From assembly GCA_963834265.1 (NCBI GenBank), contig CAWIAU010000001.1, positions 7,572 to 71,571 of the forward strand: a stretch of 64,000 nucleotides of DNA. Reading direction: 5' to 3'. The stretch is from an uncultured bacterium. GTDB lineage: Bacteria; Patescibacteriota; Saccharimonadia; Saccharimonadales; 2-12-FULL-41-12. Position numbers and translations under genes: made by a program. The notes under the pieces were generated by a model. It worked only from the letters and a program-made list of their open reading frames with translations. It searched no databases and had not been told where the DNA came from. Below are positions 2,218 through 47,110 of the stretch, piece after piece; within the stretch, counting starts at the first letter, position 1; each line of letters begins with the position of its first letter.

Positions 2218-2880
2218 ATGAATAGTATTAAAAAACAAGTATACATAGGAGTCGCAATTATAGCGGCGATGACATTATTATTAACCGGCTCAGCATTCGC
2301 GCATGTTGTCGTTAAACCGGCCGAAGTGTTAACCGGAGCCTTCCACACTTTCAATACCGGCGTACCCAACGAAAAAGATATTCCGACTGTTGCTGTTAAA
2401 TTACTGATACCTGAGAATTTGCAGCATGTTTCTCCGACGGTTAAGCCGGGCTGGACAATTAGTGTAGAAAAAGTTGGCGAAGGCGAAGACGCAGTAGTCA
2501 AATCTATCACCTGGAGTGGCGGCAGTATACCGGCCGGCCAGCGTGATGACTTCACTTTCAGCGCTAAAGCACCGGACAAAACAGGTGATCTGCAGTGGAA
2601 AGCCTACCAGACCTACGAAAGCGGCGAGATAGTTGCCTGGGACCAGGATCCATCCCAAAAGGGCGAGGATACCAAGCCGTTCTCCATAACAAAAGCTGCC
2701 GCCAAGGCCACTAATACGAATTCTGCAGCCGCAACGGAGGATAAGAAAGATTCTGACAACGGCGCCAAAACAATAGGATATGCCGCACTGGCAATATCAT
2801 TTGTCGCTCTTGCCGTAAGCACGCGCAAACCAGGCACCACACCTGCTGCAACCCCGGCTGCCACAAAGAAAAAAAAATAA
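2218..2880 (+). CDS. ycnI: YcnI-family (DUF1775) copper-binding protein, membrane anchored
   Basis: AGGAG RBS. After the signal peptide comes AHVVVKPAEV...NTGVPNEKDIPT...ITWSGGSIPAGQRDDFTFSAKAPDK...WKAYQTY, a close pattern match to B. subtilis YcnI. A C-terminal TM helix and a Lys tail follow. Confidence 0.85.
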   Translation: MNSIKKQVYIGVAIIAAMTLLLTGSAFAHVVVKPAEVLTGAFHTFNTGVPNEKDIPTVAVKLLIPENLQHVSPTVKPGWTISVEKVGEGEDAVVKSITWSGGSIPAGQRDDFTFSAKAPDKTGDLQWKAYQTYESGEIVAWDQDPSQKGEDTKPFSITKAAAKATNTNSAAATEDKKDSDNGAKTIGYAALAISFVALAVSTRKPGTTPAATPAATKKKK

Positions 2881-2890
2881 ACTCTTCTTT

Positions 2891-4060
2891 TTACTTTTTT
2901 CTACTGGTTGTTTTAACTGCGACTTCGGATAAATTGTAGGCGGGTCGCGGGGTTCTGTGGAATAGTTCAAGCAACAGCATTCCGGCTCCTCCCCAGAAAG
3001 CTATCAATATCGCCAGGAAACCAATAATCGGAATGAAATATGTAAGCAGCAGCACGGTTGCTCCTGCGAGCATGATGACAAGCGGCTGAACTGAGCCACG
3101 CAATATCAACCGGCCCAGATAATAGCCGAATATCGGCCCGCTGAGGATCATTACAACCAGCCATGACAACCCTATCAGTATCGCAAGCGGTATGCCGACC
3201 AGCGTAAGCGCCAAACCGATCAGAATAACCGGCACGACGAGTCCCGCCAGCAAACCGACGAGCAGCGCTTTCCATGGCCGCGGTAAGCCCCGATCCGTAA
3301 CCCTTTGCAGCATACGGGGGAATAATAGCACTAATACCATCGATGTAACGAGCATAGCCAGGAACAAATAGATAAACCAGCCGTTCACGAAGCTACCCTC
3401 TGACTTTGACTCCCGAGGAGCTTCGCTACGGGTAATTTTACCGCCTACTAAGGCTTCGCTCGCTTTTTTGATCTCGTTATTACTCCGGAATTCTATGTTT
3501 CCCTGCACCCGGGCACCGCCGCCGAGTTCAAGATTTTCGATATTACCTTTGATATCACGCCCGACTGAATTCGCAATGAGTATACTACCCCCTCCGGCAG
3601 CGATATCACGGCCTACGCTGCCGCTGAATGTTCCGTCAGAAGAACCCAACGTGACATCGCCACCGATCTTTGCTCCGGAGCTAAGCATAAAAGACTGGCC
3701 CCCAATGGTTGCGTTGCCGGATACGGTGCCTCCGACCGTGATGCTTTGGCCGGCAAGCCGCACATCACCATTTACTGTACCGTTGACTGTTAGTGTCTGG
3801 CCGGCGCATATTACGTCGCCGTGCACGGTTCCACTGATAGTAACTGTCTGGCCGGCGCAGAAAACATCACCGAATACTTCGCTGCTTATATTGATAGTAT
3901 TGCCCGCGGCAAATAAGCTATGGTCAATTCTTTCCTGCTTGTCAGCGACAACATTGGTTCCGCTTCGGAAACTATGAGCATTAGTCAGCCCCGCATATCC
4001 TGCGAAAGATATAGTTACCAATACTACGGCACTGAGTAATATTTTGTATTTTCTCACCAT
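2891..4060 (-). CDS. bactofilin-like beta-helix repeat protein fused to a polytopic membrane domain
   Basis: GAGGAG RBS and an N-terminal signal/anchor. It carries iterated G(T/D)V.GDV..AGQ..T(V/I).G repeats typical of polymer-forming cytoskeletal (DUF583) proteins, then about 5 TM helices. Confidence 0.6.
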   Translation of the reverse strand: MVRKYKILLSAVVLVTISFAGYAGLTNAHSFRSGTNVVADKQERIDHSLFAAGNTINISSEVFGDVFCAGQTVTISGTVHGDVICAGQTLTVNGTVNGDVRLAGQSITVGGTVSGNATIGGQSFMLSSGAKIGGDVTLGSSDGTFSGSVGRDIAAGGGSILIANSVGRDIKGNIENLELGGGARVQGNIEFRSNNEIKKASEALVGGKITRSEAPRESKSEGSFVNGWFIYLFLAMLVTSMVLVLLFPRMLQRVTDRGLPRPWKALLVGLLAGLVVPVILIGLALTLVGIPLAILIGLSWLVVMILSGPIFGYYLGRLILRGSVQPLVIMLAGATVLLLTYFIPIIGFLAILIAFWGGAGMLLLELFHRTPRPAYNLSEVAVKTTSRKK

Positions 4061-13301: not shown

Positions 13302-15020
13302 TTACTTTGGGGAAAAAGTATGGAATTTGGTTTTGAACCTTGAGGCCATGCTAAAAACTTCGTGTCGCCATTCGTAAAATGCATAGCCAAGCGCGGCAAT
13401 AACAGCTAGTGTCACAAGGAGCAACCTCGGATTATTCCCTACTGAGCCTGACGGAAGATCCCTGACCTGTGCAATCCCCGCCACACTACCGCCACCCGCA
13501 CTTTTCCGACAACGATTTGTTTCAGGGTTACGTTCCTGACCCTCATCGCAAGGAGTCAGAGAAGAAGCTGTTTGGATAATTGCACGGCAACGATTTGTTT
13601 CAGGGTTACGTTCCTGATCGGCCTTACACGGCACAAGTTCTGAATCAGACGCTCCGATTGAGCGACATCTGTTTGTTTCAGGGTTACGTTCCTGACCGAT
13701 TTTGCAGGCTGTCAGATTCAGCGCAGCTAGCTGTATTAACCGGCAACGATTGGTATCATGATTACGTTCCTGATCCTGACGGCAGGGTGCGAAGCTTACG
13801 ATATTGTTGCTGATGTCCTCTTCGTCGGGAGTATTAATCAGCATAGGAAGATTAGCATTCGCGGGAGTAGGCTGATTGGTATACTGCCATACCCCGTCAA
13901 TGAGCGCCCATGCATTGTTTTCTATTGGCTGCTCATAGCTCGCTGCCAAACTGACAGCTTCACCATTCGGTGCTACGAGCCGTACGCTGGCCGAACTATT
14001 AGGCAGCACCAAACCTGTCTGAGTATCAGAAAATGCCTGATATGCTCCTGACCCTATTATCTGATCGGGCAATGGGTATGATTTGGAGTAGTCAGGACCT
14101 GATTGTAGTATGTAGCCTTTCAAACTTATTGGCCGGTTGTTAGGATTGTATATTTCGATAAATTCGTTCCCCGCATCATAGCTGGTGGCATTTGGCAACA
14201 ATTCAGTGATATACAATGTGGCATTTTCGAGTGGGATAACATTGCAGTTTTCACCATCAGAACTCTCGTAACCGGCAGGGATGCTGGTCTGCAGATCATC
14301 GATATTAAAACAGAGATCAGCCTGACAATTGCCCGCTGCATCTTTCAGATACCCGGCCGGCAATTGTGTTTGTAGTCCATCAATATTTATACAGATATCT
14401 GTCTGTACTATTACTTCGTAGACACTACTGGAGACCAGTACTGGCACGGCAACCTGCCCGAAGTCATCCAGGTTATCATTAGTGTCTTTAAGCGTCGTCT
14501 CGCCAATGCTGACGCGCTGTAAAATGCCGGGGCTTACCGGATTGGCCGCAGCTGTACCTTCTGCAGTACCGCCTCCCCATCCTAATCTGTCAATTTCCAC
14601 ACCGCCGGCATCGAGCAAGCGAATATACCGGTCTTTGCCGGCAATCGAACCTGACGCAAAAGTAATATCGAAGACAGACGCCGGGTAATCAACTTTGAAT
14701 GCACTGCTCGCTGCAACCAGGTAGCCATGAGCCGGTAGCCAGAGTTTAGTATGAGCATCAGGAGCGATCAAACAGCCCAGATTTGCAGAATCTTCTGTCG
14801 TGGCGCCATATTTTAGACACCATCCGGTCGTATCAACCGCTGCCGGGCTGTTGTTGTAGACAGAGATGTATTCTTTATTTGTAAATCCTGTTGCCCCGAC
14901 CTGTAACTGGTAAATCACAGGATTGCCAGCTGCTTGAGCCACTTGAGAAACTAACATCAATAACCCGAGTACTGCGAATACTCCGCTCACCCCCAGCAAG
15001 CTTTTAATCATGCCGTTCAC
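13302..15020 (-). CDS. surface-anchored protein with two lamin-tail (LTD) domains and four Cys-bracketed repeats
   Basis: Signal peptide; LTD-like segments (YISVYNNSPAAVDTTGWCLKY; EFIEIYNPNNRPISLKGYIL); 4x C-x3-QERN(P/H)(E/D)TNRCR; C-terminal TM helix. Confidence 0.8.
   Translation of the reverse strand: MNGMIKSLLGVSGVFAVLGLLMLVSQVAQAAGNPVIYQLQVGATGFTNKEYISVYNNSPAAVDTTGWCLKYGATTEDSANLGCLIAPDAHTKLWLPAHGYLVAASSAFKVDYPASVFDITFASGSIAGKDRYIRLLDAGGVEIDRLGWGGGTAEGTAAANPVSPGILQRVSIGETTLKDTNDNLDDFGQVAVPVLVSSSVYEVIVQTDICINIDGLQTQLPAGYLKDAAGNCQADLCFNIDDLQTSIPAGYESSDGENCNVIPLENATLYITELLPNATSYDAGNEFIEIYNPNNRPISLKGYILQSGPDYSKSYPLPDQIIGSGAYQAFSDTQTGLVLPNSSASVRLVAPNGEAVSLAASYEQPIENNAWALIDGVWQYTNQPTPANANLPMLINTPDEEDISNNIVSFAPCRQDQERNHDTNRCRLIQLAALNLTACKIGQERNPETNRCRSIGASDSELVPCKADQERNPETNRCRAIIQTASSLTPCDEGQERNPETNRCRKSAGGGSVAGIAQVRDLPSGSVGNNPRLLLVTLAVIAALGYAFYEWRHEVFSMASRFKTKFHTFSPK
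13505..13790 (-). repeat. four tandem 75-78-bp coding repeats (core ACGATTTGTTTCAGGGTTACGTTCCTGA)
   Basis: Cores lie at 13512-13539, 13590-13617, about 13665-13695 and 13746-13773. They encode the QERNPETNRC modules of the LTD protein. Confidence 0.9.
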
Positions 15021-15032
15021 TATACTCTATGG

Positions 15033-16496
15033 TTATACTAATTCGCTAATGTTTTTTCCTGATCGGAAATTATATTTAGTTTTATAGTACAAATAAATGA
15101 TGGTGCTCAGACCCAAAACATAACTCGCAATCAGAAGATTACTACTGAATTTCATTTCCCCCGCGGCACCTGGGAAAGCAGCAATTTTCTCAATTATAAA
15201 TGTTGAATACGTTAGCAGTGCTGTGGCCGGCAGGCCAAAAATATGAGCCATGCCCGGTATCAGCAGGCTGCCAGCTCCGGCAATAAACACAAATAGCATT
15301 GCAAACGGAACTACCGGCAATACCAAAATATTAGCCAATAAAGCATACGGCGAGTATTGTCCGAAGACGTAAACAATAATCGGCAACGTCATGATTTGAG
15401 CGCTCAGAGTAGCTATGAATAATTCGCGAATAACGCCTGGCTTTCGATCGCCCCAAAAATAACGATGCAATAAAGGTGCCAGTAATAAAATGCCTGCAAA
15501 GGCGGCAAACGACAGATACCAGCCAATATCTCCCCAAATATAGGCCGGCCTGAACAGCAAGGTCGCAGCTGCCGCGAAAGACAAAAGTATAACCGGATGC
15601 AATTTACGCCCGTAGTACCACGCCAGTAGCCCCAGTCCCGCTACCAGGCCAGCTCGGGACATGCTGGGACTGAGCCCGGTAATTAACATAAATCCGGCAA
15701 TCATCATACCTCCGGCCAGTGTTGCCAGATATTTTGACACGCGACTCAGGATTCTTCGAGCAAACACTACAAGGATCATCAGATTATAGCCACTGGCTAC
15801 AACTACGTGCGTCAGGCCGGTTATGCGAATTTGCTCTTCGAGAGTCTCCGGCAACGCACTTTTCTGTCCCAGCAAATAGCCTGCACCCAGACTGACCTGC
15901 GGCTCCGGAATAGCACGCGCTATCCCGCCGGCAAACCAATCACGAAACTGCCGGCCGATATCCCCGGGGTGTGGTCTTGACACAGCCTCTACCTCAGCAC
16001 GGAACATCGAGGCCTGCAAATTACCGAATCCCTTCAGCAAAATTCCACTAAGCTTCACCTTATCACCTCTTTTTATATCAGACTTACCGAGTACACTTGT
16101 CCATACTTCACCGTCCAAATGCTTATTATTTATTTCAACGTTCCTGATGCGTATTCTCTGATCTACGCGCTCGCCGTAAGTAACGTCCTCTGTGACATTT
16201 CCGCTCAGGATTATCTGCTGACCATAATATGGCCGATACTCTGCGAAGTCCTGAACCACCATATTGCCGCGCGTTAAACCCGTTAACAATCCGGCCGCAA
16301 ATGCCAGACTCAAAAGTATTTTCGGACGCCTGAGCAATGCAATGAAAAGTAGCGAACCTACAACAATATACCACTCCGGACTGTCAAAAAAAGCAGATTT
16401 TATGATGAGACATAGTGCAGTACCGATAATAATTCCTAGTGATAATGCACAAATAAACCAAGAAATATGTGTTTTTTTAGTCAGCCAGTTTTTCAT
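15033..16496 (-). CDS. comEC: ComEC/Rec2 DNA-uptake channel, lacking the C-terminal metallo-beta-lactamase domain
   Basis: 487 aa with an N-terminal OB-fold-like region (DIKRGDKVKLSGIL) and a competence domain (ITGLTHVVVASGYNLMILV) with about 10 TM helices. The ORF ends right after the last TM helices. Confidence 0.85.
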   Translation of the reverse strand: MKNWLTKKTHISWFICALSLGIIIGTALCLIIKSAFFDSPEWYIVVGSLLFIALLRRPKILLSLAFAAGLLTGLTRGNMVVQDFAEYRPYYGQQIILSGNVTEDVTYGERVDQRIRIRNVEINNKHLDGEVWTSVLGKSDIKRGDKVKLSGILLKGFGNLQASMFRAEVEAVSRPHPGDIGRQFRDWFAGGIARAIPEPQVSLGAGYLLGQKSALPETLEEQIRITGLTHVVVASGYNLMILVVFARRILSRVSKYLATLAGGMMIAGFMLITGLSPSMSRAGLVAGLGLLAWYYGRKLHPVILLSFAAAATLLFRPAYIWGDIGWYLSFAAFAGILLLAPLLHRYFWGDRKPGVIRELFIATLSAQIMTLPIIVYVFGQYSPYALLANILVLPVVPFAMLFVFIAGAGSLLIPGMAHIFGLPATALLTYSTFIIEKIAAFPGAAGEMKFSSNLLIASYVLGLSTIIYLYYKTKYNFRSGKNISELV

Positions 16497-17224
16497 AAGA
16501 TAACCTGAGGAAGTTGTTGGTTGGGGCAGGTATCAAGTACCCGATGCATGGCATCGTGCTCGGCCTGGGTAATCCATAATGTGTATTTGGCTTTGACTGC
16601 GATCTGGCGGGCAATGTATTGGCAACGATACGGTTTGTTGGGTGGCAGCCATGTGGCGGCATCGCTATCGCTTTTTTTCTGATTGACAGGACCATCTACT
16701 GCCAGAAGATTCAATGGATCGTTTGCAAACTCCTGCCTGGTCGTGGCAGACAGTTGCTGAGCCCCCTTCTGCCAGGCATCAGATAGTGCAACGACATGAT
16801 CGATCTGGACATCATCGCTTGTATCCCGGCCCCGTACAAAGTTGATCCGATTACCGGTATAAGGATCATCCAGTAATCCACTGATTACTGTGCAGTCTGT
16901 TTCGGAAACAGTTTTGACCTCCGTCATATCGCGCCTGAGTATATGGTTGCGTATATCGCACGCGCCCAGCCGCTGCCAGTCATCATCAAACTGTGCCCTT
17001 TTGTAGTCTGTTCGCGGGGCACGTCCTTTGATAGCCAATTTGCCCAGAGCCTCCACGGCCGATCCTGGCAGCGGCACACCTGCCGTTTGCTCAGTATTGA
17101 CCGATTGCACATTGGTTGGCAGCGCCGGCATCCTGCTTTGCTGCCATGCTTCATAAGCCGCACCCGCACATATAGAAAATGTCACCAATAAAATTACTGC
17201 CAGCCGCCTGCGACGCTCAATCAT
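16493..17224 (-). CDS. secreted DUF1524 (GmrSD C-terminal type, His-Me finger) nuclease
   Basis: Signal peptide; VQIDHVVALSDAWQKGA ... FANDPLNLLAVDGPVNQKKSDSDAATWLPP. Its stop overlaps the comEC start by 4 nt. Confidence 0.8.
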   Translation of the reverse strand: MIERRRRLAVILLVTFSICAGAAYEAWQQSRMPALPTNVQSVNTEQTAGVPLPGSAVEALGKLAIKGRAPRTDYKRAQFDDDWQRLGACDIRNHILRRDMTEVKTVSETDCTVISGLLDDPYTGNRINFVRGRDTSDDVQIDHVVALSDAWQKGAQQLSATTRQEFANDPLNLLAVDGPVNQKKSDSDAATWLPPNKPYRCQYIARQIAVKAKYTLWITQAEHDAMHRVLDTCPNQQLPQVIL

Positions 17225-18502: not shown

Positions 18503-18578
18503 GGGGGTGTAGCTCAGTGGTTAGAGCAGTCGGCTCATAACCGATTGGTCCCTGGTTCAAGTCCAGGCACCCCCACCA
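18503..18578 (+). tRNA. tRNA-Met (anticodon CAT), elongator type; tRNA-Ile2 (lysidine) not excluded
   Basis: 7-bp acceptor stem GGGGGTG/CACCCCC, D arm GCTC-AGTGGTTA-GAGC, anticodon loop CTCATAA, T arm CCTGG-TTCAAGT-CCAGG, encoded ACCA tail. The G1-C72 pair argues against an initiator. Confidence 0.9.
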
Positions 18579-18890: not shown

Positions 18891-20123
18891 TTAGAATCTT
18901 ATGAAGAAGCTTCTGATCAGCTTCAGGTAGAACTGAATAATCTTTTGCTGTGACGGAGGAGCGCTGGCGCCTGCGACATAGACAATACAGTCATTCTGGC
19001 TTACAAACGCAGGATTAGAGAAGTTCTTCCAGCCATTGTTGTAACATTGTTCAACTTTGGTCGGAGAATTTTTGACCGTGATCTTGTATGGTGCTGCAGC
19101 GCCATTGCTCCAGGCACTTGTGTTGCCGTCAGCATCGATAGCTCGTACTCGCACATAATATGTGCCTTCCGGAGTACCTGCAGTAGATATCTCCGAGGAA
19201 GTCAGGGTCGGACCACTGTCATAAACGGATGCCGTGTAAGCAGGGTCAGCAGAAAATGCCTGATATTGATATTTAACCGGCCCGTTCCCTGTGGTAGTTG
19301 CATCAGTCCAGTCAATTTTATTTAACTGTGATGTAGTAACGACTGAGTTATTGGCCGGCGAAGTAATAGCGGGCGCAGAAACTGTAGGCGCGTTAAGCTC
19401 AAAGTTAAAAGTAGTGGTATTGCCGCCGGTGGTAATACTAAATGCATCTACATTACCATTAAATGAGCTCCAGCCACTTCCGGCTTTGAATACAACAGCT
19501 CCCAGAGTTGGGCTGGGATGTACGCCTACATTAGGAAAGAGTGTTTTGATTTGATTCCATGTACAAGGGACTGCTTGAGTACAGGTGTTATTAAATTTAG
19601 TTGCGCCCTGACTGCTGAACCACCACTTGGCATTGCCGCCATTTATAGCGTCCCAGGTTGTCCAGGTTCCTTGCGGTACAGTTCCTCCGTTGTTTTGATA
19701 TGGCTCATAAACAATCCGGCCCTGGAAGGTAGTGTCCGCATCAGTTACGTCTTTGTCCACATTAAACTGCAATGCAATTGCCGTGGCATTGCTTGGGTTA
19801 GCAGGTGCCTGGTACGTTGCATAACTAAGCGCACTAATGTCTGCCAGCTTTGTCCCTGCAAATGCTGCCTTTGCTAATATGTGCCCTTCGCTAGTACTAG
19901 CCGTGGTAAGCTGTGCGCTACCCGATCCCAGCGGAGGCGTACCGGGTCCATTTACAAATACTCCGGTTTCGGGAGTGTTTGTTTGATCGTTGATAAATGC
20001 CCAGCCCTGTTCGTGGCCCGGATAGACCGTTACTGTGTTAATTGCCGCAAATGCTATTGCCGACGTTCCGAGTACTACCGATAAACCTGCGCCAATACCT
20101 ACTAATAACTTTTTTATAGACAT
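18891..20123 (-). CDS. secreted protein of unknown function with an Ig/FN3-like C-terminal module
   Basis: 410 aa; signal peptide (AIAFA|A); Thr/Asn/Gly-rich beta-type sequence; conserved Cys pairs (NNTCTQAVPC, QCYNNGW...DC). Confidence 0.7.
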   Translation of the reverse strand: MSIKKLLVGIGAGLSVVLGTSAIAFAAINTVTVYPGHEQGWAFINDQTNTPETGVFVNGPGTPPLGSGSAQLTTASTSEGHILAKAAFAGTKLADISALSYATYQAPANPSNATAIALQFNVDKDVTDADTTFQGRIVYEPYQNNGGTVPQGTWTTWDAINGGNAKWWFSSQGATKFNNTCTQAVPCTWNQIKTLFPNVGVHPSPTLGAVVFKAGSGWSSFNGNVDAFSITTGGNTTTFNFELNAPTVSAPAITSPANNSVVTTSQLNKIDWTDATTTGNGPVKYQYQAFSADPAYTASVYDSGPTLTSSEISTAGTPEGTYYVRVRAIDADGNTSAWSNGAAAPYKITVKNSPTKVEQCYNNGWKNFSNPAFVSQNDCIVYVAGASAPPSQQKIIQFYLKLIRSFFIRF

Positions 20124-20772: not shown

Positions 20773-21306
20773 TTAGGAGTCCCGATCGATTTTGACATTG
20801 CTGACCATCCAGTTTCCATCCTGAAGCGTATACCAGATCGTATAGTCTACCGGCTCAGAGATGTCTTCTCCATTAATAGATATTGTTTCTGTAGCATTAA
20901 GCGAAACTTTTGCTTCAGAACCATTGATCTTCACAGAGCCTTCATTATAATCATCAGTTACAGTAGTTTCTATTATTCCCTGTATATCCTGCTGCTTCTG
21001 CGTAACCTGGTCATCTATAAAGCTTTGACGGCTATATTCTTCCGTAACAAGCGGTTTGAGCTCAGATACCCTTTCCTGATATGTTTCAGCCGTATAAGTA
21101 CCGTATTTTTGCACGAACTCATATGACTGGCTTCGCAGTTTTGTTTCTGTAGTGTCCGTGCCCGACTCTGTAGAGTCATTCGTTCTCTGATAGATGATTG
21201 CGACAGTTATGGCTGAAATCAATATGATCACTACAAGCAGGACCAATCTTGATTTCTTATTCATAGACCTTATGTATTGAGCTATCTGGCTAATCTTATT
21301 CCTCAT
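20773..21306 (-). CDS. membrane-anchored hypothetical protein, immediately downstream of the giant hydrolase
   Basis: 177 aa with one N-terminal TM helix; 2-nt gap to the 21309-26090 gene. Confidence 0.6.
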   Translation of the reverse strand: MRNKISQIAQYIRSMNKKSRLVLLVVIILISAITVAIIYQRTNDSTESGTDTTETKLRSQSYEFVQKYGTYTAETYQERVSELKPLVTEEYSRQSFIDDQVTQKQQDIQGIIETTVTDDYNEGSVKINGSEAKVSLNATETISINGEDISEPVDYTIWYTLQDGNWMVSNVKIDRDS

Positions 21307-21308
21307 AA

Positions 21309-24300
21309 TTAATAACCTACCGATCCGGCTTTACAGTTGTTTGGGTTACCGCGTCCGTCATTCGGCAGATAGTTCAGCGGATTAAGCGTCCCCTGGTTCA
21401 GGCCTTTCGGTCCAGGACCTTCCGGAGGATCCTGCGCATTGCCCGAGGGGGTGTCACTCCTACTATTTTGGATGTTGAAGTGCAAATGAACCGCATAATC
21501 TCCGCCTGTATTACCCATCCTGCCAACCAGCTGACCTCTGACTACGATTTTACCCACCTCAATGCCAGGCTGGAACGAGGCCAGGTGCGCATAGAGAGTA
21601 TAGTAGAAGCGCGTGGGATTACCGGCAACCGGGTGCTTAATATAAACCGCATTGCCATAACCCTCGAAGGGTGCTGTGTTACTGGCTTTTGCAACCACCG
21701 TACCGACTGCCGCCGCACGGATACCCGGCGCGGATTTACCTGCGGCACCCACGTCGATTCCGGAATGCAGATGGTCACCACGATCGTCTCTCCAGCATGA
21801 TGACAAAGGATAATCGGCTGATACCGGCCAGCTCCACTTTACACCGCCCACCACACGCGACGGAAGATTGGTCCCTGCTCCGGGACTATCAGGCAACGGA
21901 GTCGTGCCGGGATTGGCCGGTAGATTGCCGGCATCGCCGTTGCTAGCCGAATTTCTGAACTTTTTCCATGCTGCAAGAACTTTTGCATTATAGCCGGATG
22001 TAAAACCGGGATCGCGCCGGCAAGCTGACTTGTTACCAGAGTTATAGCCACAGGCTGCTTTACGGACTTGTTCTTCGCTCAGACGTTCGCTGGGATTTGA
22101 AGTTTTGTCTATATAGTTTGCCACAGTGAACACGGCATCGGACCATTTCTGATCATCCCACGTTGACGGGAAGGTATCTACCGCATTTGTACCGGTGCCA
22201 CCATCTCCCGGATATAAGAGTCTGCCGCCAAATTTATTGCTATTCCATGTGCCTTCTTTCATCTGGCCGGGGCCTTTGCATACCGGTGATGCTCCGCCAC
22301 AATTGTTGTTAACTTTTGCTTTGAATGCAATTGGGTCTTTTACCAGAGAACCGTCCATTGATTCGACCGAGATAATTGCAAGGATCAGTGCAGGATCCAC
22401 GCCCATACGGGCGCCGGCAGTACAGGCATAATCGGCATACATTTTGGTCTGGGCACGGGATAATGGGGAAATTGTTGTTTTAATATCATCGCATACTACC
22501 GGAATATGGGCGGCTCCGGCTCCGGTGGACGGAACAGGTGTTGTCGGAGGGCCACAATCGGCTTGCCCAGGCGCGACACCACCCGTAGTAGGGACAGGAC
22601 AGCCCCCGCCGGTTGCATTATTGAGGAATATTATTGAAAATGTGGCGGGTTCGTCTTTTTGCAGAGTCACGGTACGTTTAATTTTTTGAACGCCGTTTTC
22701 GGTAAATATTTTCGTATCGGCATCGGGATTAGCCGAAAATCTTTTACTCATTGTATAGCCGCTCGGTATGGTGGCGTTTATCTCCCATTGCTTGGCATAA
22801 TCATTGTTGCTGGCGAATGCAACGGGACATGAACTGAAGCCAATTGATGCAGGACCTGTCGCGGTCTCGGCCTTTGTGTTGCCTCTGCTTGGTGTACAGT
22901 TATCGTTGGGACGGCCGGTGCTAACCATCTCGATGGATATATTCTTGAAAGGCTGGTCTTTGAACGTTCCTTTATTATCCGTATCCACCCATGTTTCTAC
23001 GGTAACCCTGCCTGCCTTATTAGAGCTGGGAACAGGACTGGTATTGTTAGTTCCTCCGCCCGGAGTAGACGAGACTGGTACCGGATCACAGGTTATGGAA
23101 CCTGCACCCTGAACCAGATATATTTCGATGCGTGTAACTTTATTCTGGTTAACTTTGAAGTGATATTTGGAGTTGTCGCAGCCGGCTTTATGCGGCGAAT
23201 TATCGGCTTCTCTATATCCTGCTCTCTTGACGAGACTCAGCTGGTAAGTTTTGGCACCGCCGTCCTGTGCCACCGGACAGTTTACAAAGCTAACTCTACC
23301 TTTGATTCCATTACTGCCATCAGATCCTGAAGTTCTGTTGCGCGGATCACATTGGAACTGCGGAGTGTCTGCGGCGCCAATCGATTTGGTATGTACTTCA
23401 ACCTCACCCATCAGTGTTTTTTTGCCTCCAGTAGTATCGTATGTGCAAACAACAATCGCACCTTTGCCGTTGGTTGGATTTGCTACACCTGCAGTATTTT
23501 TGTTGGTATCACAAAGCTGAGCAACAGCCGGGGTAGTCGGATTAGCGGGGGGTGGCGCATTAGATCCGGGTGGGTTCGGTACCGGCCCCGGACTTGGATT
23601 ATTCGGATTTTCAACACTTCCGTTGCTACCGATCAACAAGAAGCTGACTTCGGTTTCCAGATTTTTGCGAAGTGTGACATCACGGTAGACTATATTGCCA
23701 TTGACGACTGCCCCAACGCCATTGTTGTATGCTGAATCAAGCGTGAAGCCAGCCGGAACATTCATGGTGACCCGATATTTCTTGGCGTGGTTATCGTTTG
23801 TCTGCTCGGCTACCGGACATTCTGTGAAACGAATCAATCCGAAGCCATTTGGTCCGCTGGCCCTGTCGGCATTGGTCAGGCCGGCAGTGGTTGACTTGGT
23901 CTTTCCGTCGCTAAGTGTATGCTTGGTTCCGTAGCACTGTTTAGTCGGTCCTACGCCAATGTTTTCGGTTGAGATGTATACATTGCCAACACGGTTATCG
24001 ATGCTTGTGTTGATGACTTGTCCGGCTTTATCGTGGGCATAAACCCCGACTTTGATTTTGCCGACATTGAGAGACGGCGTGGTGGGAGAAGCAGGAGGAG
24101 AACCGCCGGTTGGAGGCGGAGGAGGTGGAAGTGGCGAAGGATTAGCTGATCCCGATGCGGGAATTACTATGGTAGCGGAATTCGAGAGGTTATTGTCATT
24201 AGTAGCTTTGAATACCAATGTATGACGATTACCGTCAGCAATATTGACTCCGCCAAAGTCCAGGCTGGTACCACGATGCGAAGGATGCTTAGAAAAGTCA

Positions 24301-26090
24301 CTGCGGATTCCCCTTTGAGTACCGTCGATTGTAACTGTTACATCCCGTACGAAGTCCAAGGGGAAATTATTCTGTGTCTGATAGCCGAAAACATCTACTT
24401 CAGCCCCCGTTGCCGAGAGTCCTGTCACGGCTATTAGCGGACCGTCACCCGGAGCATGGTTGTAGTTAATTACCGTTGGTGAAGGCGGTGGTGGTGCAGG
24501 CAAGCCAGGATCAGGGCCGGGAGTACCTCCCTGCGAGAAAGAATCCCAGACCACCTGGCCGCCCGGTGTAGTAATCACTAGGTTGCCATCGTCTCTCATT
24601 ACCAACCGGTCGGCACCAGTCCCATTTGTATTGCTGGCCCAGGTACCAGTACCATTAGACCTGTACTTTACAAGGTTTCCGTCACCCTGCATGTGCAAAT
24701 AAGTTGACCCGTCACCGTGAGTATAATTGCACCAAAGCCCGTGGCCGCGGTCATAAATACACATATTGCTGTCACCTTGGAAGATAAATTTGAACCGGCC
24801 GTTGCTGGAAGTTAATGAGTCGCCATTATTCATAACGATGTCATTGCCGGCGTAAAGTACGTTGCCGAGTGAGTTGGAACTAGGAGTAGGTGATCCAGGC
24901 GGGCCAGCTGGGGGTGGTGCTGGCGCCGGTGCTTTGGATTCATCATATATAAAGCGGGCGTTTACATTCTGATTCCACAGAAGCGTTACAGTACGGCTGT
25001 GTGTGCCTGCTATAGTGTAGCCCGGCGGCGTGTCACCGGCTGTAACGGTATAGGTAGCATCATTGCCCCCGATATTGCTCACCGGACAACCACGAAAATT
25101 AACTGCGCCTAAACCATTAGTAACACCGGAATTACCGCTATCACATGCACTAAGGGATGGGTGACTTATAGATATAGGAACCCCGCTGATGCGCTTTCCC
25201 TGCTTGTCTTCGGCAAATACATCAAGGTCGCCGTGTCGGCAACCATTACAGGTATGGGCTTCGGCCTTTGGAGTTATCAGGTTACCCAAGTTGTTTGATG
25301 CCCCACGAACCGTGCTGGAAACGGTGGAGGCTATGTCAGTTCCTGACTTATTGGCCGAATCAGCAAGTTTCTCAAATATGCCCTGGTCCGGTGATAAGAA
25401 AGCACGGGCCGGAGGATCCAGTGTAAAACTAGATACGGCCACTTCTTTGGCCTCACCAGCTGCCACAAAGTTCTTTGGCTGTGCATAGAAAGGTATTGTA
25501 GTTGAACTTATATTCGAACCCTGTCCGATTACCCCGCCAAGTTTAGCAGTTGCGTTAATCGTATGTTGGCCCGGCTTAAGGTTATGCATGGGGAACATAT
25601 TGACTCCATTGACACCACCACTAAAGATATACGGATATACTCCCCCGTTCTTAAACGTTGAATTGGCGTTGATGATCTTGGACATAACAACGCGGCCATC
25701 CATACTTACCACAATGTTAATAGGGCTGGTAATGTCAGATGCTGCCCTAAACTCTGTTCTGATCTCAAAATCAGTATGCATTGTTGTGCCAGAAGTCGGT
25801 GAAGTAATCACAAACTGGCTTCCGGCACTACCGACAAATTGTTGGACGGCCAGGTAGCTGCCAACCCCTGTAGCACCGACCATTGCAACAGAAACAGTTG
25901 ATATACCGATCTTAGTAGCTAATGTTCCGGTAACGAATTTCTTACTAACGGCCACAAAAGCTGAAGAGGATTTGAGCTTAAACATCAAACTAATCAGTAA
26001 ACCTAAGACAAGCCCAATGATTGGCACAGATCTTAATTTTTTCCAACCTTTTGCAACACTGATTTTCATGTTTTTTCTCAAAACTTTCAA
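21309..26090 (-). CDS. 1593-aa envelope protein: bulb-type lectin, four beta-sandwich repeats, lytic transglycosylase-like domain and M23 peptidase
   Basis: N-terminal TM helix. B-lectin-like segment (FIFQGDSNMCIY...MQGDGNLVKY...MRDDGNLVITT). Four modules of about 130 aa share the motif F..CPV and are separated by Pro-rich linkers. SLT-like segment (ILAIISVESMDGS ... GPGQM). M23 motifs (HSGIDVGA ... HLHFNI). Confidence 0.9.
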   Translation of the reverse strand: MKVLRKNMKISVAKGWKKLRSVPIIGLVLGLLISLMFKLKSSSAFVAVSKKFVTGTLATKIGISTVSVAMVGATGVGSYLAVQQFVGSAGSQFVITSPTSGTTMHTDFEIRTEFRAASDITSPINIVVSMDGRVVMSKIINANSTFKNGGVYPYIFSGGVNGVNMFPMHNLKPGQHTINATAKLGGVIGQGSNISSTTIPFYAQPKNFVAAGEAKEVAVSSFTLDPPARAFLSPDQGIFEKLADSANKSGTDIASTVSSTVRGASNNLGNLITPKAEAHTCNGCRHGDLDVFAEDKQGKRISGVPISISHPSLSACDSGNSGVTNGLGAVNFRGCPVSNIGGNDATYTVTAGDTPPGYTIAGTHSRTVTLLWNQNVNARFIYDESKAPAPAPPPAGPPGSPTPSSNSLGNVLYAGNDIVMNNGDSLTSSNGRFKFIFQGDSNMCIYDRGHGLWCNYTHGDGSTYLHMQGDGNLVKYRSNGTGTWASNTNGTGADRLVMRDDGNLVITTPGGQVVWDSFSQGGTPGPDPGLPAPPPPSPTVINYNHAPGDGPLIAVTGLSATGAEVDVFGYQTQNNFPLDFVRDVTVTIDGTQRGIRSDFSKHPSHRGTSLDFGGVNIADGNRHTLVFKATNDNNLSNSATIVIPASGSANPSPLPPPPPPTGGSPPASPTTPSLNVGKIKVGVYAHDKAGQVINTSIDNRVGNVYISTENIGVGPTKQCYGTKHTLSDGKTKSTTAGLTNADRASGPNGFGLIRFTECPVAEQTNDNHAKKYRVTMNVPAGFTLDSAYNNGVGAVVNGNIVYRDVTLRKNLETEVSFLLIGSNGSVENPNNPSPGPVPNPPGSNAPPPANPTTPAVAQLCDTNKNTAGVANPTNGKGAIVVCTYDTTGGKKTLMGEVEVHTKSIGAADTPQFQCDPRNRTSGSDGSNGIKGRVSFVNCPVAQDGGAKTYQLSLVKRAGYREADNSPHKAGCDNSKYHFKVNQNKVTRIEIYLVQGAGSITCDPVPVSSTPGGGTNNTSPVPSSNKAGRVTVETWVDTDNKGTFKDQPFKNISIEMVSTGRPNDNCTPSRGNTKAETATGPASIGFSSCPVAFASNNDYAKQWEINATIPSGYTMSKRFSANPDADTKIFTENGVQKIKRTVTLQKDEPATFSIIFLNNATGGGCPVPTTGGVAPGQADCGPPTTPVPSTGAGAAHIPVVCDDIKTTISPLSRAQTKMYADYACTAGARMGVDPALILAIISVESMDGSLVKDPIAFKAKVNNNCGGASPVCKGPGQMKEGTWNSNKFGGRLLYPGDGGTGTNAVDTFPSTWDDQKWSDAVFTVANYIDKTSNPSERLSEEQVRKAACGYNSGNKSACRRDPGFTSGYNAKVLAAWKKFRNSASNGDAGNLPANPGTTPLPDSPGAGTNLPSRVVGGVKWSWPVSADYPLSSCWRDDRGDHLHSGIDVGAAGKSAPGIRAAAVGTVVAKASNTAPFEGYGNAVYIKHPVAGNPTRFYYTLYAHLASFQPGIEVGKIVVRGQLVGRMGNTGGDYAVHLHFNIQNSRSDTPSGNAQDPPEGPGPKGLNQGTLNPLNYLPNDGRGNPNNCKAGSVGY

Positions 26091-26165
26091 TAAGTCTTAC
26101 TTTTTGCTTATGTTAAGCCAGCACACCTATAATGTCAAGTTTCGATGATTTCAGGAATCAGACAT

Positions 26166-26771
26166 CTAATAGAACGTAATGTTACCGATCGGATAAAGCC
26201 GGACTGTTAATACTCCTACTATAGTTTCTGTATTGAGTGGTCCGAAATCCCTCGAGTCATACGACCCGTCACGGTTATCCCCCAGTACAAATATTTCTCC
26301 AGGTCCCAGAATCTGATCGATATAACCGGCTGTTATGTCATCGATTCCTGCTTCAGCGGGTGCGGCCCAATCTACCAGAAGGCCTTCGGGATTACTTTCA
26401 TTAAAAACCCGCACATCATTATTAACAATTGCTACCCGTTCACCCGGTAAAGCAATGACCCGCTTGATAAGCTCTTTTTCTCCAAGCGCATTAGGGTTTT
26501 TGAAGACAATTACATCGTATCTCTTTGGTATATACAGACTGCCGGTAATTTTTGCCCATGTTTTACCTAGTTTTTCTACAATAACCACGTCTTTATGATG
26601 CAATGTTTCTTCCATGCTCGGACCGTCAATACGATAAAAATGAAATACAAAAAGTGTCAGCAAAAGGGTGATTACCGGTACACCGATAATATAAATCAGC
26701 TTTTCTTTAAAGATTAGCCGGTTCCGGCTGTTTTCCTGCGCTTCCTGATAGCTTTTTTGGCTTGTTTTCAT
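26166..26771 (-). CDS. lepB: signal peptidase I
   Basis: TM anchor, catalytic-Ser box DGPSMEETL, KRVIALPGERV, GDNRDGSYDSR. Confidence 0.9.
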   Translation of the reverse strand: MKTSQKSYQEAQENSRNRLIFKEKLIYIIGVPVITLLLTLFVFHFYRIDGPSMEETLHHKDVVIVEKLGKTWAKITGSLYIPKRYDVIVFKNPNALGEKELIKRVIALPGERVAIVNNDVRVFNESNPEGLLVDWAAPAEAGIDDITAGYIDQILGPGEIFVLGDNRDGSYDSRDFGPLNTETIVGVLTVRLYPIGNITFY

Positions 26772-40818: not shown

Positions 40819-42123
40819 ATGCATATTTACTTTTCCGGTATCGGCGGTGCTGGTATGGGCCCGCTTGCGTTGATAGCACATCAATCCGGCCATGAGATAT
40901 CCGGTTCTGACAAGCAGGATTCACAGTATCTGGCTTATCTACAGGATAAAGGACTGCACGATATTCATGTTGGACAATCTGCCGAAGCAATTGAAAGTCT
41001 GCATCAGAAAAAGCCGATCGACTGGATCGTATTTTCTTCAGCGGTACTTATAGAAAATGCTGATCATCCTGAGCTGATCTTTGCTAAAAAACAAGAGATA
41101 CGGACCAGCAAACGTGACGAGCTATTAAATAAAATCATCGCAGACAACGGACAGAAGCTCATAGCTATAGCCGGTACACACGGCAAAACCACTACAACCG
41201 CGATGGTTGTTTGGCTCTTAAAGCAGTCAGGACAGCCTCTCAGCTACTCTGTCGGCGCCAAGTTATCATTCGGTGATATGGGTCAATTTGACTCAAGAGC
41301 AGAATACTTTGTATATGAATGTGATGAGTTCGACCGGAATTTTCTGGCTTTTCATCCATATCTTAGCCTGATCAGTGGTATATCCTGGGATCATCATGAA
41401 ATTTTCCCAACGAGTAAGGCATACAACGAAGCCTTTCACCAATTCATCGGACAATCAGAATGGACAATCCTGTGGCCCAAAGATATGAAATATCTTAATC
41501 TGCAAAGCAGCAACAGTATATTCTCGCCGGATCCGAAGCTTACCCAGTCAGACAAATTAACTCTTGTAGGCCAAGTTAACCGCGAGAATGGCTGGCTGGC
41601 CATACAGGCCGTCGCGGAACTCACTCAGGAACCTTACGACAAGCTAGCCTCCCTTATGAACAATTTTCCAAGCTTGTCGCGCCGTATGGAGCAATTAGTG
41701 CCAGGACTCTATTCCGACTATGCCCACACTCCCGAAAAGATCCGTGGCGCAATCGAAACTGCTCTGGAGATTGTCAAAGATGATACCAGCAAGCTGGTTA
41801 TCGTCTATGAACCTCTGACAAATCGTCGGCAGCATTATATAAAAAAATTGTATTCTGATCTGTTCAGAGATATTAATAAGCTTTATTGGGTACCCAGCTT
41901 TCTAACACGTGAAGATCCGGCGCAAAAAGTATTAACTCCGGCAGATTTAATAGCGAATATGACAAATCCGCAGATTGCAGAGCCAGCTGATATGAACGAT
42001 AATCTTAAACAAACAATCCAAAAACACTTAGACCAGGGTGATCAGGTTGTCTGTTTAACAGGCGGCGGAGGCGGAAGCCTCGACGAATGGCTCCGGGCAA
42101 ACTTCGTTCGCAATAGTAAGTAG
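40819..42123 (+). CDS. murC: Mur ligase family, MurC/Mpl-like (UDP-N-acetylmuramate--L-alanine ligase type)
   Basis: N-terminal IYFSGIGGAGMGPLALI and P-loop AIAGTHGKTTTTAM. At 434 aa it is shorter than a typical MurC, so Mpl is not excluded. Confidence 0.75.
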   Translation: MHIYFSGIGGAGMGPLALIAHQSGHEISGSDKQDSQYLAYLQDKGLHDIHVGQSAEAIESLHQKKPIDWIVFSSAVLIENADHPELIFAKKQEIRTSKRDELLNKIIADNGQKLIAIAGTHGKTTTTAMVVWLLKQSGQPLSYSVGAKLSFGDMGQFDSRAEYFVYECDEFDRNFLAFHPYLSLISGISWDHHEIFPTSKAYNEAFHQFIGQSEWTILWPKDMKYLNLQSSNSIFSPDPKLTQSDKLTLVGQVNRENGWLAIQAVAELTQEPYDKLASLMNNFPSLSRRMEQLVPGLYSDYAHTPEKIRGAIETALEIVKDDTSKLVIVYEPLTNRRQHYIKKLYSDLFRDINKLYWVPSFLTREDPAQKVLTPADLIANMTNPQIAEPADMNDNLKQTIQKHLDQGDQVVCLTGGGGGSLDEWLRANFVRNSK

Positions 42124-44941: not shown

Positions 44942-47110
44942 CTAATAGTAATACCAGCGGTCAGTACCCGCGGTGTTGGTTACATCTGTCAGTTTTTTGG
45001 GCTGGCCGCCGCTCAGGCTCATGACGTAATCCGCTGTTTCCGGTCCGCCCGCAACCCTATAAACTACATGGTCGTTATCGAGCCAGCGTAACGGGTTTTT
45101 GAGGCCACTCTGTGAATGCAATACTTTGTCTTCTTTGCCTGTATGATCATAAGCCAAAAGCGTTCCCTTGCCATCGCGATCTTCAACCCACAGACTGCGC
45201 GAATCATCAGGGCTGCCAATGTACAACCGGGAGACGAGTGCGGGAGGAGCTCCGGTGGCCTTACTGAACTTACCCCCCGGGATATCGTAGTCGTACCAAT
45301 CCTGACCGACAGACACGCTTATTCGGTCAAAGCTGGTACGGAAGAGATTCCAGGCTTCTTTGTCCGAGATAGTCTTTTTGCCGCTGCCATCAGAATCGAT
45401 TCTGAATAAGCCTATAGCTCCGTTCACTTTATATATCGCCGGGCTGTAATATATTGCGCCCCGGGCTACCATAACATCGTTGAAGTAATTGGTACTGGCC
45501 AGTTCTTTTTCCTGCTCGGTTTTCAGATCATAAGACATCAACCGATGTCGCTGAGGGCTGGCCGCACTGGCACCCTCGGCTACCACGACATAGATCAATC
45601 TATCTCCTATCCAATCAATGATCTGGATTCTTTCTGACTGTCCGATTTTGGTTATGGTCGCATTTTCTACATTGATAATGTTGAGCGTGCTCAACAAAAA
45701 GCCATCTTTATTTCGTATATTGCCACGTGTCGAGACAAAAGCTGTCATTTCTTTAGCAGGATGCGATACCAGGGTCATACTATCCGGCTGTTCGCTACCT
45801 GTTCCAAGTAGTAATTTTTGTTCATTTTTGCCGTCAACGTCAATCTTGTAGATGTCAAATGTCCCGCTCCGTTTGGACACAAAGACGGCTTTTCGCGCCG
45901 GTACCAGTTTGACCTGCTGGTTTACTTTGTTGGCAGCAGGAATTTTCAATATTTCATTACGATAATTGTCAGCTGTTATGGTCACTTCTATCTCTGCGTC
46001 ATCAGACTGCGGTACACTTAATACGACTTCACCTTTTTCATTGGAGCTGGCGCTGGCTTCACCGCTGGATGCTTCGCCTTTTGTGAGTGATTTGCCTGAC
46101 AGAAAATCACTTAGTATAAAGGTGTACTGGCTACCAACGGGTATCAGATTCATGCTGCCAAGCGGATTGCTGCCCCAGCCGATATTTAATTCTTTTGTCA
46201 TATCAGCAAATGCAACCTTTTTGATACTAAGCGTCTGCGCCCCAAGCTTAATATGATCGAGCCTCACTGTGCCTTCTTTGTCCGTTCTGCTTGTTTGTCC
46301 GGCCAGATTAACTTCAACGTTTTTGAGTGGCTGACCGGTGGTCTGATCCAGAACTACCATCGAAGTGGAAGCTCGCACACCTACAGTATTGAGCACAAAA
46401 TAACGGCTGGAAGGCAATACAGCGCACGCTACCAAACCGGCCAGTAGCAATATTACTGTAAGCCGGCGATACAGCCGGTTATGCCACCATGCCCCGAAAA
46501 ATGCCTTGAATTTAGATTGTGTTTTGGGCTGTGCAGCCAATAACGGAGGAGTCTCAGAGGTGTTACCTGCCCGTTCGTCTTCGGCAGCCAGAAGTTCATC
46601 CGCTTCCTCGGCCACAATAGCATCGACAAGTTTGCCTGTATCCGGGTCATCAAGTTTCAGTTCATCTGTAGGCTTGACGGCTGTGCTGTCTTCTTCGGTT
46701 GTATTTTCGGGTAATTCTTCGGGCTCTGTTTCAGCTACTACTTCAGGCTCTTCAATAATCTTTACTTCGTCAGGATTATCCGTTGCTTCAGACTGTTCAG
46801 GTACTTCATCTCCGGACACTTTTCTTTTATCAGGATCGGCATGGGGGGCCGTTTTATCTTCGGGAACATCTGTAGTTTCATTTTCATCGTGGAAAATTTT
46901 GATTTTTTTTAACTTTTCGGTAGGCAAAAGCGGAGCACCCATTGACTCAGAATCTTTTGGAGCCGGAGCCAGCGTATCGCTGATATCCGGTTCATCCGGA
47001 ATATCGCTACTCATCATAGCGTCGACTTTGCTCTCCAGTTCAGGATCAACGCCGCCGGAATCAAATCCTGGCTCGTGGTCTGCTTTGGGTGTGTCTTTTT
47101 TATTGGCCAT
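44942..47110 (-). CDS. membrane-anchored protein: acidic disordered tail, TM, CarboxypepD_reg-like domain, TolB/PD40-like beta-propeller
   Basis: 722 aa. The N-terminal about 210 aa are D/E/P-rich, followed by a TM helix. MVVLDQTTGQPLKNVEVNL...TDKEGTVRL, then FVSKRSGTFDIYKIDVDGKNEQKLL-type repeats. Paralogue of 47907-49676. Confidence 0.8.
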   Translation of the reverse strand: MANKKDTPKADHEPGFDSGGVDPELESKVDAMMSSDIPDEPDISDTLAPAPKDSESMGAPLLPTEKLKKIKIFHDENETTDVPEDKTAPHADPDKRKVSGDEVPEQSEATDNPDEVKIIEEPEVVAETEPEELPENTTEEDSTAVKPTDELKLDDPDTGKLVDAIVAEEADELLAAEDERAGNTSETPPLLAAQPKTQSKFKAFFGAWWHNRLYRRLTVILLLAGLVACAVLPSSRYFVLNTVGVRASTSMVVLDQTTGQPLKNVEVNLAGQTSRTDKEGTVRLDHIKLGAQTLSIKKVAFADMTKELNIGWGSNPLGSMNLIPVGSQYTFILSDFLSGKSLTKGEASSGEASASSNEKGEVVLSVPQSDDAEIEVTITADNYRNEILKIPAANKVNQQVKLVPARKAVFVSKRSGTFDIYKIDVDGKNEQKLLLGTGSEQPDSMTLVSHPAKEMTAFVSTRGNIRNKDGFLLSTLNIINVENATITKIGQSERIQIIDWIGDRLIYVVVAEGASAASPQRHRLMSYDLKTEQEKELASTNYFNDVMVARGAIYYSPAIYKVNGAIGLFRIDSDGSGKKTISDKEAWNLFRTSFDRISVSVGQDWYDYDIPGGKFSKATGAPPALVSRLYIGSPDDSRSLWVEDRDGKGTLLAYDHTGKEDKVLHSQSGLKNPLRWLDNDHVVYRVAGGPETADYVMSLSGGQPKKLTDVTNTAGTDRWYYY

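Follow-up and report, generated by a model that had tools for sequence, protein, structure and literature searches.

How an epibiont of the Candidate Phyla Radiation (CPR) passes the thick wall of its host is a question to which genetics has so far answered with pili, with a type IV secretion system and with a small number of envelope proteins that bind glycans (PMC10633639, PMC11623550). It is raised in another form by a single large gene of an uncultured member of the Saccharimonadales, located in a 64-kb stretch of DNA (contig CAWIAU010000001.1 of GenBank assembly GCA_963834265.1, positions 7,572 to 71,571), which was analysed as a whole and is termed here the window. The gene (21309..26069; coordinates are those of the window, with features on the (-) strand unless marked (+)) encodes a protein of 1586 amino acids (aa) plus stop that proceeds from a hydrophobic N-terminus and a conserved module, through four beta-sandwich copies and one bulb-type lectin, to a GH23 and an M23 domain. 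The question is which wall such a protein would cut, that of its producer or that of another cell.

The protein is very probably an exported, stalk-mounted wall hydrolase with two enzymes and a lectin. It would be exported by the Sec pathway and be extracellular, with its two catalytic domains at the C-terminal tip, about 1100 residues from the N-terminus, and with the stretch before the tip made up of six sandwich-type modules (four of one family), the bulb-type lectin and Pro-rich linkers. Through its lectin the protein would attach to a surface glycan, and the wall would be opened locally by both enzymes, with the GH23 glycosidase cutting the glycan strand and the M23 zinc endopeptidase cutting either the peptide stem or the cross-bridge. 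A protective or regulatory role on the surface of the producer is suggested for the small membrane protein whose gene is strictly linked. The wall of another cell, that of an Actinobacteria-type host of an epibiont, is put forward as the most likely substrate, at a confidence that falls a little short of even.

Catalytic head and lectin

The M23 (LytM/lysostaphin-type) metallo-endopeptidase proposed in an earlier note, which was made from the letters of the window alone, is borne out. Together with the C-terminal tail it spans residues 1400-1586 (21312..21872), numbered here and throughout from the Met encoded by the ATG at 26069, and it passes the Pfam cut-off (PF01551; 62.8 vs 28.7 bits, residues 1434-1536). 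All five metal-binding and catalytic residues are kept (H1435xxxD1439, H1495 in YAHL, and H1528xH1530), and these zinc ligands and the catalytic His align with those of the solved enzymes TagE, Csd3-like, 9gy1 and 3slu; one match in the PDB is the phage protein Gp16 (9m7n). The HxxxD motif, the His of YAHL and HxH are shared with M23 bacteriolysins and autolysins (lysostaphin, LytM, zoocin A, TagE, Csd3), and in lysostaphin and zoocin A the M23 domain is likewise paired with a targeting module, whereas in the present protein a lectin-bearing stalk of ~1100 residues and a GH23 domain precede it in the same chain.

The GH23 lysozyme-like glycosidase domain (residues 1186-1376; 21942..22514) was placed by profile, relatives and predicted fold. 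It carries the catalytic pair Glu1236-Ser1237 and the motifs GPGQM (1266-1270) and GYNSG (1341-1345), and it lies under the curated cut-offs of SLT_2 (PF13406; 14.8 vs 24.3 bits), SLT (PF01464; 11.8 vs 21.3) and EmtA (14.5). In an exhaustive HMMER search only two proteins outside the family, P0035 and P0046, matched this region, and both pass Pfam SLT_2 (29.7 and 33.0 bits). A profile of five GH23 sequences found g-type lysozyme (E 6e-4), MltC (7.6e-3) and Tse3 (0.3) in the PDB. E1236, invariant in the five sequences, aligns with the catalytic sites AIISRESRAG of g-type lysozyme and AIMQTESSFN of MltC, and all three full-length proteins share S1237, which is replaced by Asn in P0035 and P0046. 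The AlphaFold model of the domain has a predicted local distance difference test score (pLDDT) of 73.9 and a predicted template modelling score (pTM) of 0.81, and its top 50 Foldseek matches are nearly all lytic transglycosylases, lysozymes or related lysins (MltE, prob 0.99), with template modelling (TM) scores of 0.4-0.5. By its outside relatives, the PDB profile and the predicted fold, the region is assigned to the lysozyme-like GH23 fold. The placement reaches the fold, within which a lytic transglycosylase and a hydrolytic lysozyme are both possible. Of the SLT glycosidase originally suggested, the GH23 fold and the catalytic Glu stand, the Pfam thresholds for SLT are failed, and a transglycosylase is one of two readings that the sequence allows. 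The residues on which both enzyme assignments had been made to depend, the SLT Glu and the HxxxD and HxH of M23, are all present on alignment.

Known GH23 enzymes, namely family 1 lytic transglycosylases (MltE/MltC/Slt), goose-type lysozyme, the lysin of phage phi6 and the type VI secretion system effector Tse3, resemble the domain in having Glu-Ser on the same helix, GxxQ, (A/G)YN and the fold, and differ from it in that the present domain combines sub-threshold Pfam and modest TM scores with extra Cys and a long insert (1280-1305). The pair of activities is that of phage tail-associated lysins, which combine a lytic transglycosylase with M23 and open a local hole in a foreign wall from outside (PMC10194240); unlike these lysins, the protein has a cellular context without nearby phage genes, an N-terminal export signal and a lectin.

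The two outside relatives, P0035 (membrane helix and SLT_2) and P0046 (M23 and SLT_2), are short and simple, and the fact that the sole GH23 relatives beyond the family look like ordinary wall-remodelling enzymes favours an alternative in which the protein is an autolysin for the wall of its producer. Its lectin would then keep it near the wall by binding a self wall glycopolymer, its enzymes would cut glycan and peptide bonds for growth, daughter-cell separation or local openings, and its partner would be a regulator like the LytM-factor/FtsEX-type controls. Taken with the evidence given below, such an autolysin is considered possible and rather doubtful.

The bulb-type (monocot mannose-binding, beta-prism II) lectin (residues 400-514; 24528..24872) was identified with phmmer against the PDB. 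It lies below the Pfam cut-off for B_lectin (PF01453; 24.7 vs 32.4 bits), and residues 402-514 align end to end with solved lectins, including putidacin L1 (E 2.6e-15) and plant bulb lectins (E 1e-12), of whose 109 aa residues 2-109 are covered. These full-length alignments support the fold of the bulb lectin with three sub-repeats described in the earlier note. Of the repeats themselves, one matches QxDxNxVxY exactly (QGDGNLVKY, 461-469), one has V changed to C (QGDSNMCIY, 431-439), and the third is degenerate, with Q changed to R and Y to T (RDDGNLVIT, 492-500).

The best-scoring solved relatives of the lectin are bacteriocins, putidacin L1 and pyocin L1/L2. This would suit a released bacteriolysin used against competing bacteria, similar to class III bacteriocins (lysostaphin, zoocin A), with the signal peptide removed by the signal peptidase encoded next to it, the lectin targeting a surface glycan of the victim and the partner protecting the producer. 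However, the lectin scores nearly as well against plant lectins, and it is a single domain and not the tandem pair of bacteriocins. Lectin-like bacteriocins (LlpA/putidacin L1, pyocin L1) have the same lectin fold, which in their case binds surface glycans of other bacteria, and they differ in consisting of tandem lectins with no enzyme domain, whereas here a single lectin lies inside a hydrolase. Membership in their NCBIfam family was rejected (LLB_putidacin, NF033557; E 7.7e-23, 81 bits vs a cut-off of 275; single domain). A released bacteriolysin is judged improbable, and further evidence on it comes from the N-terminus and the partner gene.

Stalk modules and N-terminus

The repeats of the stalk emerged only with a hidden Markov model (HMM); a self-BLAST of the protein found no internal repeats. 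One HMM, built from four candidate modules, recovers four copies (residues 278-379, 668-813, 868-986 and 1018-1149; E 1e-16 to 1e-30) and finds 92 copies across 40 proteins. The four are module A (residues 268-378, HTCNGCRHGD...FRGCPVSN; 24936..25268; E 1.1e-16), module B (665-818; 23616..24077; E 1.5e-24), module C (850-998; 23076..23522; E 1.3e-30), which has two extra Cys pairs and 46 related copies in the family, and module D (1015-1152; 22614..23027), which matches module B reciprocally in phmmer (E about 1e-8). Two Cys are invariant in 43 aligned copies; they correspond to C1058 and C1081 in module D, and Cys309 and Cys328 of module A align with them. The AlphaFold model of module D (pLDDT 88.2) is an all-beta, nine-strand sandwich, which in Foldseek best matches the staphylococcal adhesin UafA, in its stalk region (3irp; E 5e-4, TM 0.57), with streptococcal pilins, a TIE protein and cohesin next. 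Four beta-sandwich repeats had been predicted, and they are found as such, all four by one HMM and with module D modelled as all-beta. The labels CarboxypepD_reg and SdrD_B that had been suggested for them were rejected: neither these nor any other Pfam family matches modules A-D (E up to 10 for the two labels), the 43-sequence module profile had no match among PDB sequences, and what there is instead is a resemblance to adhesin-stalk sandwiches at the level of the fold. The predicted module fold is thus like that of Gram-positive adhesin and pilin stalks (UafA, Spy0128-type pilins, PitA/PitB, TIE proteins) and would project the tip from the cell. Unlike those stalks, the modules show no Pfam or PDB sequence similarity to them and have an invariant, disulfide-type Cys pair, and the protein has no sign of an LPXTG sortase signal.

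Two further conserved modules bear the putative labels Ig1 and Ig2. Ig1 (residues 83-200; 25470..25823) occurs in 15 family proteins by phmmer and has no Pfam family apart from a weak CBM_2 match (E 0.05). Ig2 (residues 533-640, YNHxPGDGPL...LVFKATNDN; 24150..24473) occurs in 20 of the family's proteins, and no other stretch of the family is as well conserved. Pro-rich linkers, also anticipated in the earlier note, were located at three places (380-400, 648-666 and 831-848). The invariant Cys pair, a total of 26 Cys in the protein and the Pro-rich linkers fit an extracellular, extended protein, and the reach of the stalk, with seven globular domains and about 245 residues of linker, is estimated to be tens of nanometres.

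At its 5' end the gene is preceded in frame by a TTG at 26090, the mechanical start of an open reading frame (21309..26090) whose existence is confirmed. The ATG at 26069 is favoured by the homologues P0002 and P0003, which begin with MKI/MKY and align to that Met, and gene callers give a product of 1586 aa, a length likelier than the 1593 aa first reported. Two independent contigs, of 720 kb and 15 kb, encode an identical protein, which is therefore no assembly artefact. The N-terminal export region (residues 1-82; 25824..26069), delimited by hydropathy and family comparison, contains hydrophobic segments, the strongest at 14-32 and a second, conserved one at ~46-76, with a possible signal peptidase site after A82 (VGSA/GSQ, the slash marking the site). 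Relatives have one hydrophobic segment, after which SLA/, TFA/ or SFA/ stands just ahead of the first module, and ...SFA/ASTFTVISP of P0028 aligns with ...GSA/GSQFVITSP of this protein.

Directly upstream lies a signal peptidase I gene (26166..26771; Pfam Peptidase_S26, 3.7e-34; TIGR02227), and such a gene is immediately upstream of the big gene in five loci (the window, L001, L002, the P0014 locus and L004), in two of which the big gene lacks a recognizable hydrolase head. In view of this linkage and of the sites in relatives, the transmembrane anchor described in the earlier note holds as a hydrophobic segment and is unproven as a stable anchor; it may instead be a long signal peptide that is cleaved, and the protein could therefore be released. 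Some relatives have an additional C-terminal membrane helix, which would make sense if the N-terminus is removed. For a released bacteriolysin these features cut both ways. The family N-termini that end in SLA/, TFA/ or SFA/ and the upstream signal peptidase gene speak for it. Against it, the long hydrophobic segments are preceded by a conserved region of ~45 residues and could be a stable anchor, and the scaffold also serves in cell-bound proteins, as is seen from relatives that carry a membrane anchor at the C-terminus. Linkage to signal peptidase would be equally expected for any exported enzyme, an autolysin included. Between the signal peptidase gene and the big gene lies a promoter-like site (TTGACA-17-TAACAT, 26110..26138), which with a 10/12 consensus match is the best in the region; such sites are no commoner than in shuffles, and promoter and terminator scans as a whole did no better than with shuffled sequence.

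Exchangeable cassettes and the partner gene

Only two full-length homologues were found among 5.8 billion clustered proteins, and 40 matching proteins among 1.84 billion representatives. The reference-genome collection contains one relative, a fragment that is 38 % identical, in a metagenome-assembled genome of an uncultured Candidatus Saccharibacteria, and two metagenome scans gave nothing new. The protein belongs to a rare modular family of surface proteins that is probably restricted to Saccharibacteria, and with 40 relatives in 1.84 billion representatives it is no conserved housekeeping enzyme.

On a scaffold that relatives keep, the sugar-binding module and the C-terminal head can be exchanged like cassettes. 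The binding module is a lectin, a DUF5648 in its place, or none (the homologue P0003 lacks the lectin), and the head may be GH23 with M23, GH23 with another domain of 180 aa, M23 alone, CHAP, CAP, or FN3 with an anchor. P0002 and P0003 keep the scaffold and GH23, and have M23 replaced by the 180-aa domain. P0028 has a signal, a module, module A, DUF5648 repeats, a module and M23, and other members end in CHAP (P0017), DUF5648 and CAP, FN3 repeats and a C-terminal anchor, or unrecognized domains. A conserved N-terminal scaffold with swapped C-terminal domains (M23, a H..D/HDNHIH domain, CHAP, CAP and others) is an arrangement seen in effector-immunity pairs of the polymorphic-toxin type. The head is also the most divergent region, with GH23 40-44 % identical to that of P0002/P0003 compared with 47-73 % for the stalk modules; between P0002 and P0003 the GH23 identity is 70 %. 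Head or binding modules that are swapped or absent in close relatives are unlike an essential division enzyme and, together with the rarity of the family and a stalk of ~1100 residues that would put the catalytic tip far from the membrane, count against an autolysin.

The alternative 180-aa head, which has the motifs SxHxxGxAxD ... HDNHIH and four conserved Cys, occurs at the C-termini of P0002 and P0003 and at L008 2-469, L010 2-739 and L013 2-715. In P0002 and P0003 it has no Pfam, NCBIfam or PDB match. By its motifs it resembles M15/LAS peptidases, but a profile comparison with a Ply500 sequence aligned the motif at an E of 0.18, which is not significant, and the head is left unassigned. 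In the members with FN3 repeats (P0011, P0013, P0019 and P0021), a hydrophobic helix near the C-terminus is followed by basic residues, and the chain closes with the conserved motif PPDP(D/E)I; this ending may be an unrecognized sorting or anchoring signal.

The big gene is accompanied by a co-conserved partner gene for a protein of 177 aa (20773..21306), which starts 2 nt after its stop. The partner consists of an N-terminal membrane helix and a ~120-aa domain, and the NTF2-like signals in its ectodomain are weak and below significance (DUF4440, 3.9e-4; SnoaL; CaMKII_AD, PDB E 0.097). The co-conservation check called for in the earlier note gave a clear result, with a partner homologue directly after the 3' end of a hydrolase-headed big gene in seven of seven distinct loci, two with the M23 head (the window and L011) and five with the alternative head (L001, L002, L008, L010 and L013); L008, L009 and L012 are the same contig and are counted as one locus. 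The partner is absent from L004, L005 and L006 (the last with the CHAP-headed P0017), three related loci in which the big gene has neither a GH23 nor an M23 head, and the genes downstream there are unrelated. Partners of the M23 type share 52 % identity, compared with 22-26 % between head types, a difference that could reflect phylogeny. The proposal that the partner is a cognate inhibitor or immunity factor is upheld as to tight linkage, and an M23-specific immunity factor is ruled out because one partner family accompanies both types of peptidase head. It is possible that the partner acts against the shared GH23 domain, or that it is a regulator or an assembly partner. Tight linkage of an immunity-like gene would also be in keeping with a released bacteriolysin.

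The weak NTF2-like signals bear on another explanation, that the protein is the wall-opening part of a monoderm secretion or conjugation machine (PrgK, TraG, CwlT; VirB1-like) with the partner in the VirB8/PrgL role. A bitopic topology and an NTF2-like domain are characteristic of VirB8-like proteins, and prgL comes after prgK. The signal in the partner, however, stays below significance. The same combination of N-terminal membrane segment, glycosidase and peptidase in one polypeptide is found in the hydrolases PrgK of pCF10, TraG of pIP501 and CwlT of ICEBs1, and VirB1 homologues with M23 domains, often away from virB4, have been reported in Patescibacteria (PMC12102498). Unlike PrgK, TraG and CwlT, the present protein has a stalk, a lectin and an exchangeable head, and it is encoded outside any secretion-system cluster: neither VirB4, VirD4, VirB6 nor pilin genes are among the genes scanned in the 64-kb window or in related loci. 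VirB1-like enzymes are not known to have an 1100-residue stalk or a lectin, and a role in such a machine is regarded as very unlikely. Membership in the VirB1-like group, sought as clustering with genes for VirB4, VirB6 or a coupling protein, was rejected among the genes scanned in the same loci.

Genomic surroundings and the target wall

The genes scanned in the window have ordinary functions (signal peptidase I, lipid kinase, YdjM, DivIC, ComEC, Mur ligase, subtilase, transporters and others), and synteny ends with the three-gene cassette: the genes beyond the partner gene (YdjM and a 410-aa protein) are not shared with L001, L002, L008 or L010. The 410-aa protein (18891-20123), encoded two genes downstream of the partner gene, has a signal-like N-terminal sequence and no family match, and between its gene and that of DivIC lies a tRNA-Met (CAT; 18503-18578 (+)), the sole RNA gene detected in the 64 kb. 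Further surface proteins of this organism may be encoded at 44942-47110 and 47907-49676, whose products of 722 and 589 aa have CarboxypepD_reg-like sandwich domains. The window also has a gene for a secreted subtilase (S8; 53115-54890 (+)), and in L004 a membrane-anchored subtilase-like gene (2642-3373) directly follows a family member, which may hint at proteolytic processing of the surface proteins. Natural competence has been reported for Saccharibacteria, and a run of DNA-related envelope genes at 13302-17224 agrees with it; the products are a 569-aa protein with a lamin-tail domain, ComEC (487 aa) and a 243-aa protein with a GmrSD_C nuclease domain. A 389-aa protein (2891-4060) has a bactofilin domain just under the Pfam cut-off (26.8 vs 27.9 bits).

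The surroundings offer something to the autolysin as well. Wall synthesis is encoded in the window (Mur ligase, 40819-42123) and a DivIC gene lies 3 kb from the big gene; however, four genes and the tRNA separate the two. The other use of the enzymes considered in the earlier note, remodelling of the producer's wall for the passage of pili, found no support in the context, with no pilus or secretion-system genes among the genes scanned across the window.

Several considerations weigh against a foreign wall as the substrate. Pairs of a glycosidase and M23 are also typical of division and secretion-system hydrolases, and lectin and wall-binding domains are common in autolysins. The organism makes a wall of its own, and its DivIC gene is not far off. 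The occurrence of one partner family with two different peptidase heads argues against a simple toxin-specific immunity protein, and the seven loci may come from no more than a few lineages that are related. Finally, foreign and self peptidoglycan are not separable by the present computations. The host envelope that the earlier note had named as the target fits the stalk, the swapping and the rarity, and nothing separates it from remodelling of the self wall.

Rarity, cassette swapping, a long stalk and a partner specific to the GH23-bearing versions nevertheless fit an enzyme directed at a host or other foreign cell better than a housekeeping autolysin. The same features recall findings on TM7x and proposals for other CPR bacteria. 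Rhamnose and mannose lower the binding of the saccharibacterium TM7x to its host, an effect that implicates lectins (PMC11623550), and Southlakia has essential envelope proteins with glycan-binding domains (PMC10633639). For the CPR predator Vampirococcus, secreted hydrolases have been proposed to attack the host wall, in a study that also cites ankyrin-mediated self-protection in the predator Bdellovibrio (PMC8080830). In its most specific form, an attack on the wall of another cell would make the protein a dedicated host-wall-breaching enzyme of an episymbiotic Saccharibacterium, with lectin-guided opening of the Actinobacteria wall at the contact site, a co-evolving, membrane-anchored NTF2-like shield, and cassette swaps as the outcome of an arms race over host range. 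This fuller scenario is tentative, and its chances are put well below even.

The locus is a concrete and testable candidate for the passage of a CPR epibiont through a thick host wall. Even if the protein is an autolysin, the family shows that Saccharibacteria have stalk modules of their own for the construction of surface proteins, into which binding and catalytic cassettes are plugged, and the stalk-module family is useful for annotating many of the "hypothetical" giant proteins in Saccharibacteria genomes.

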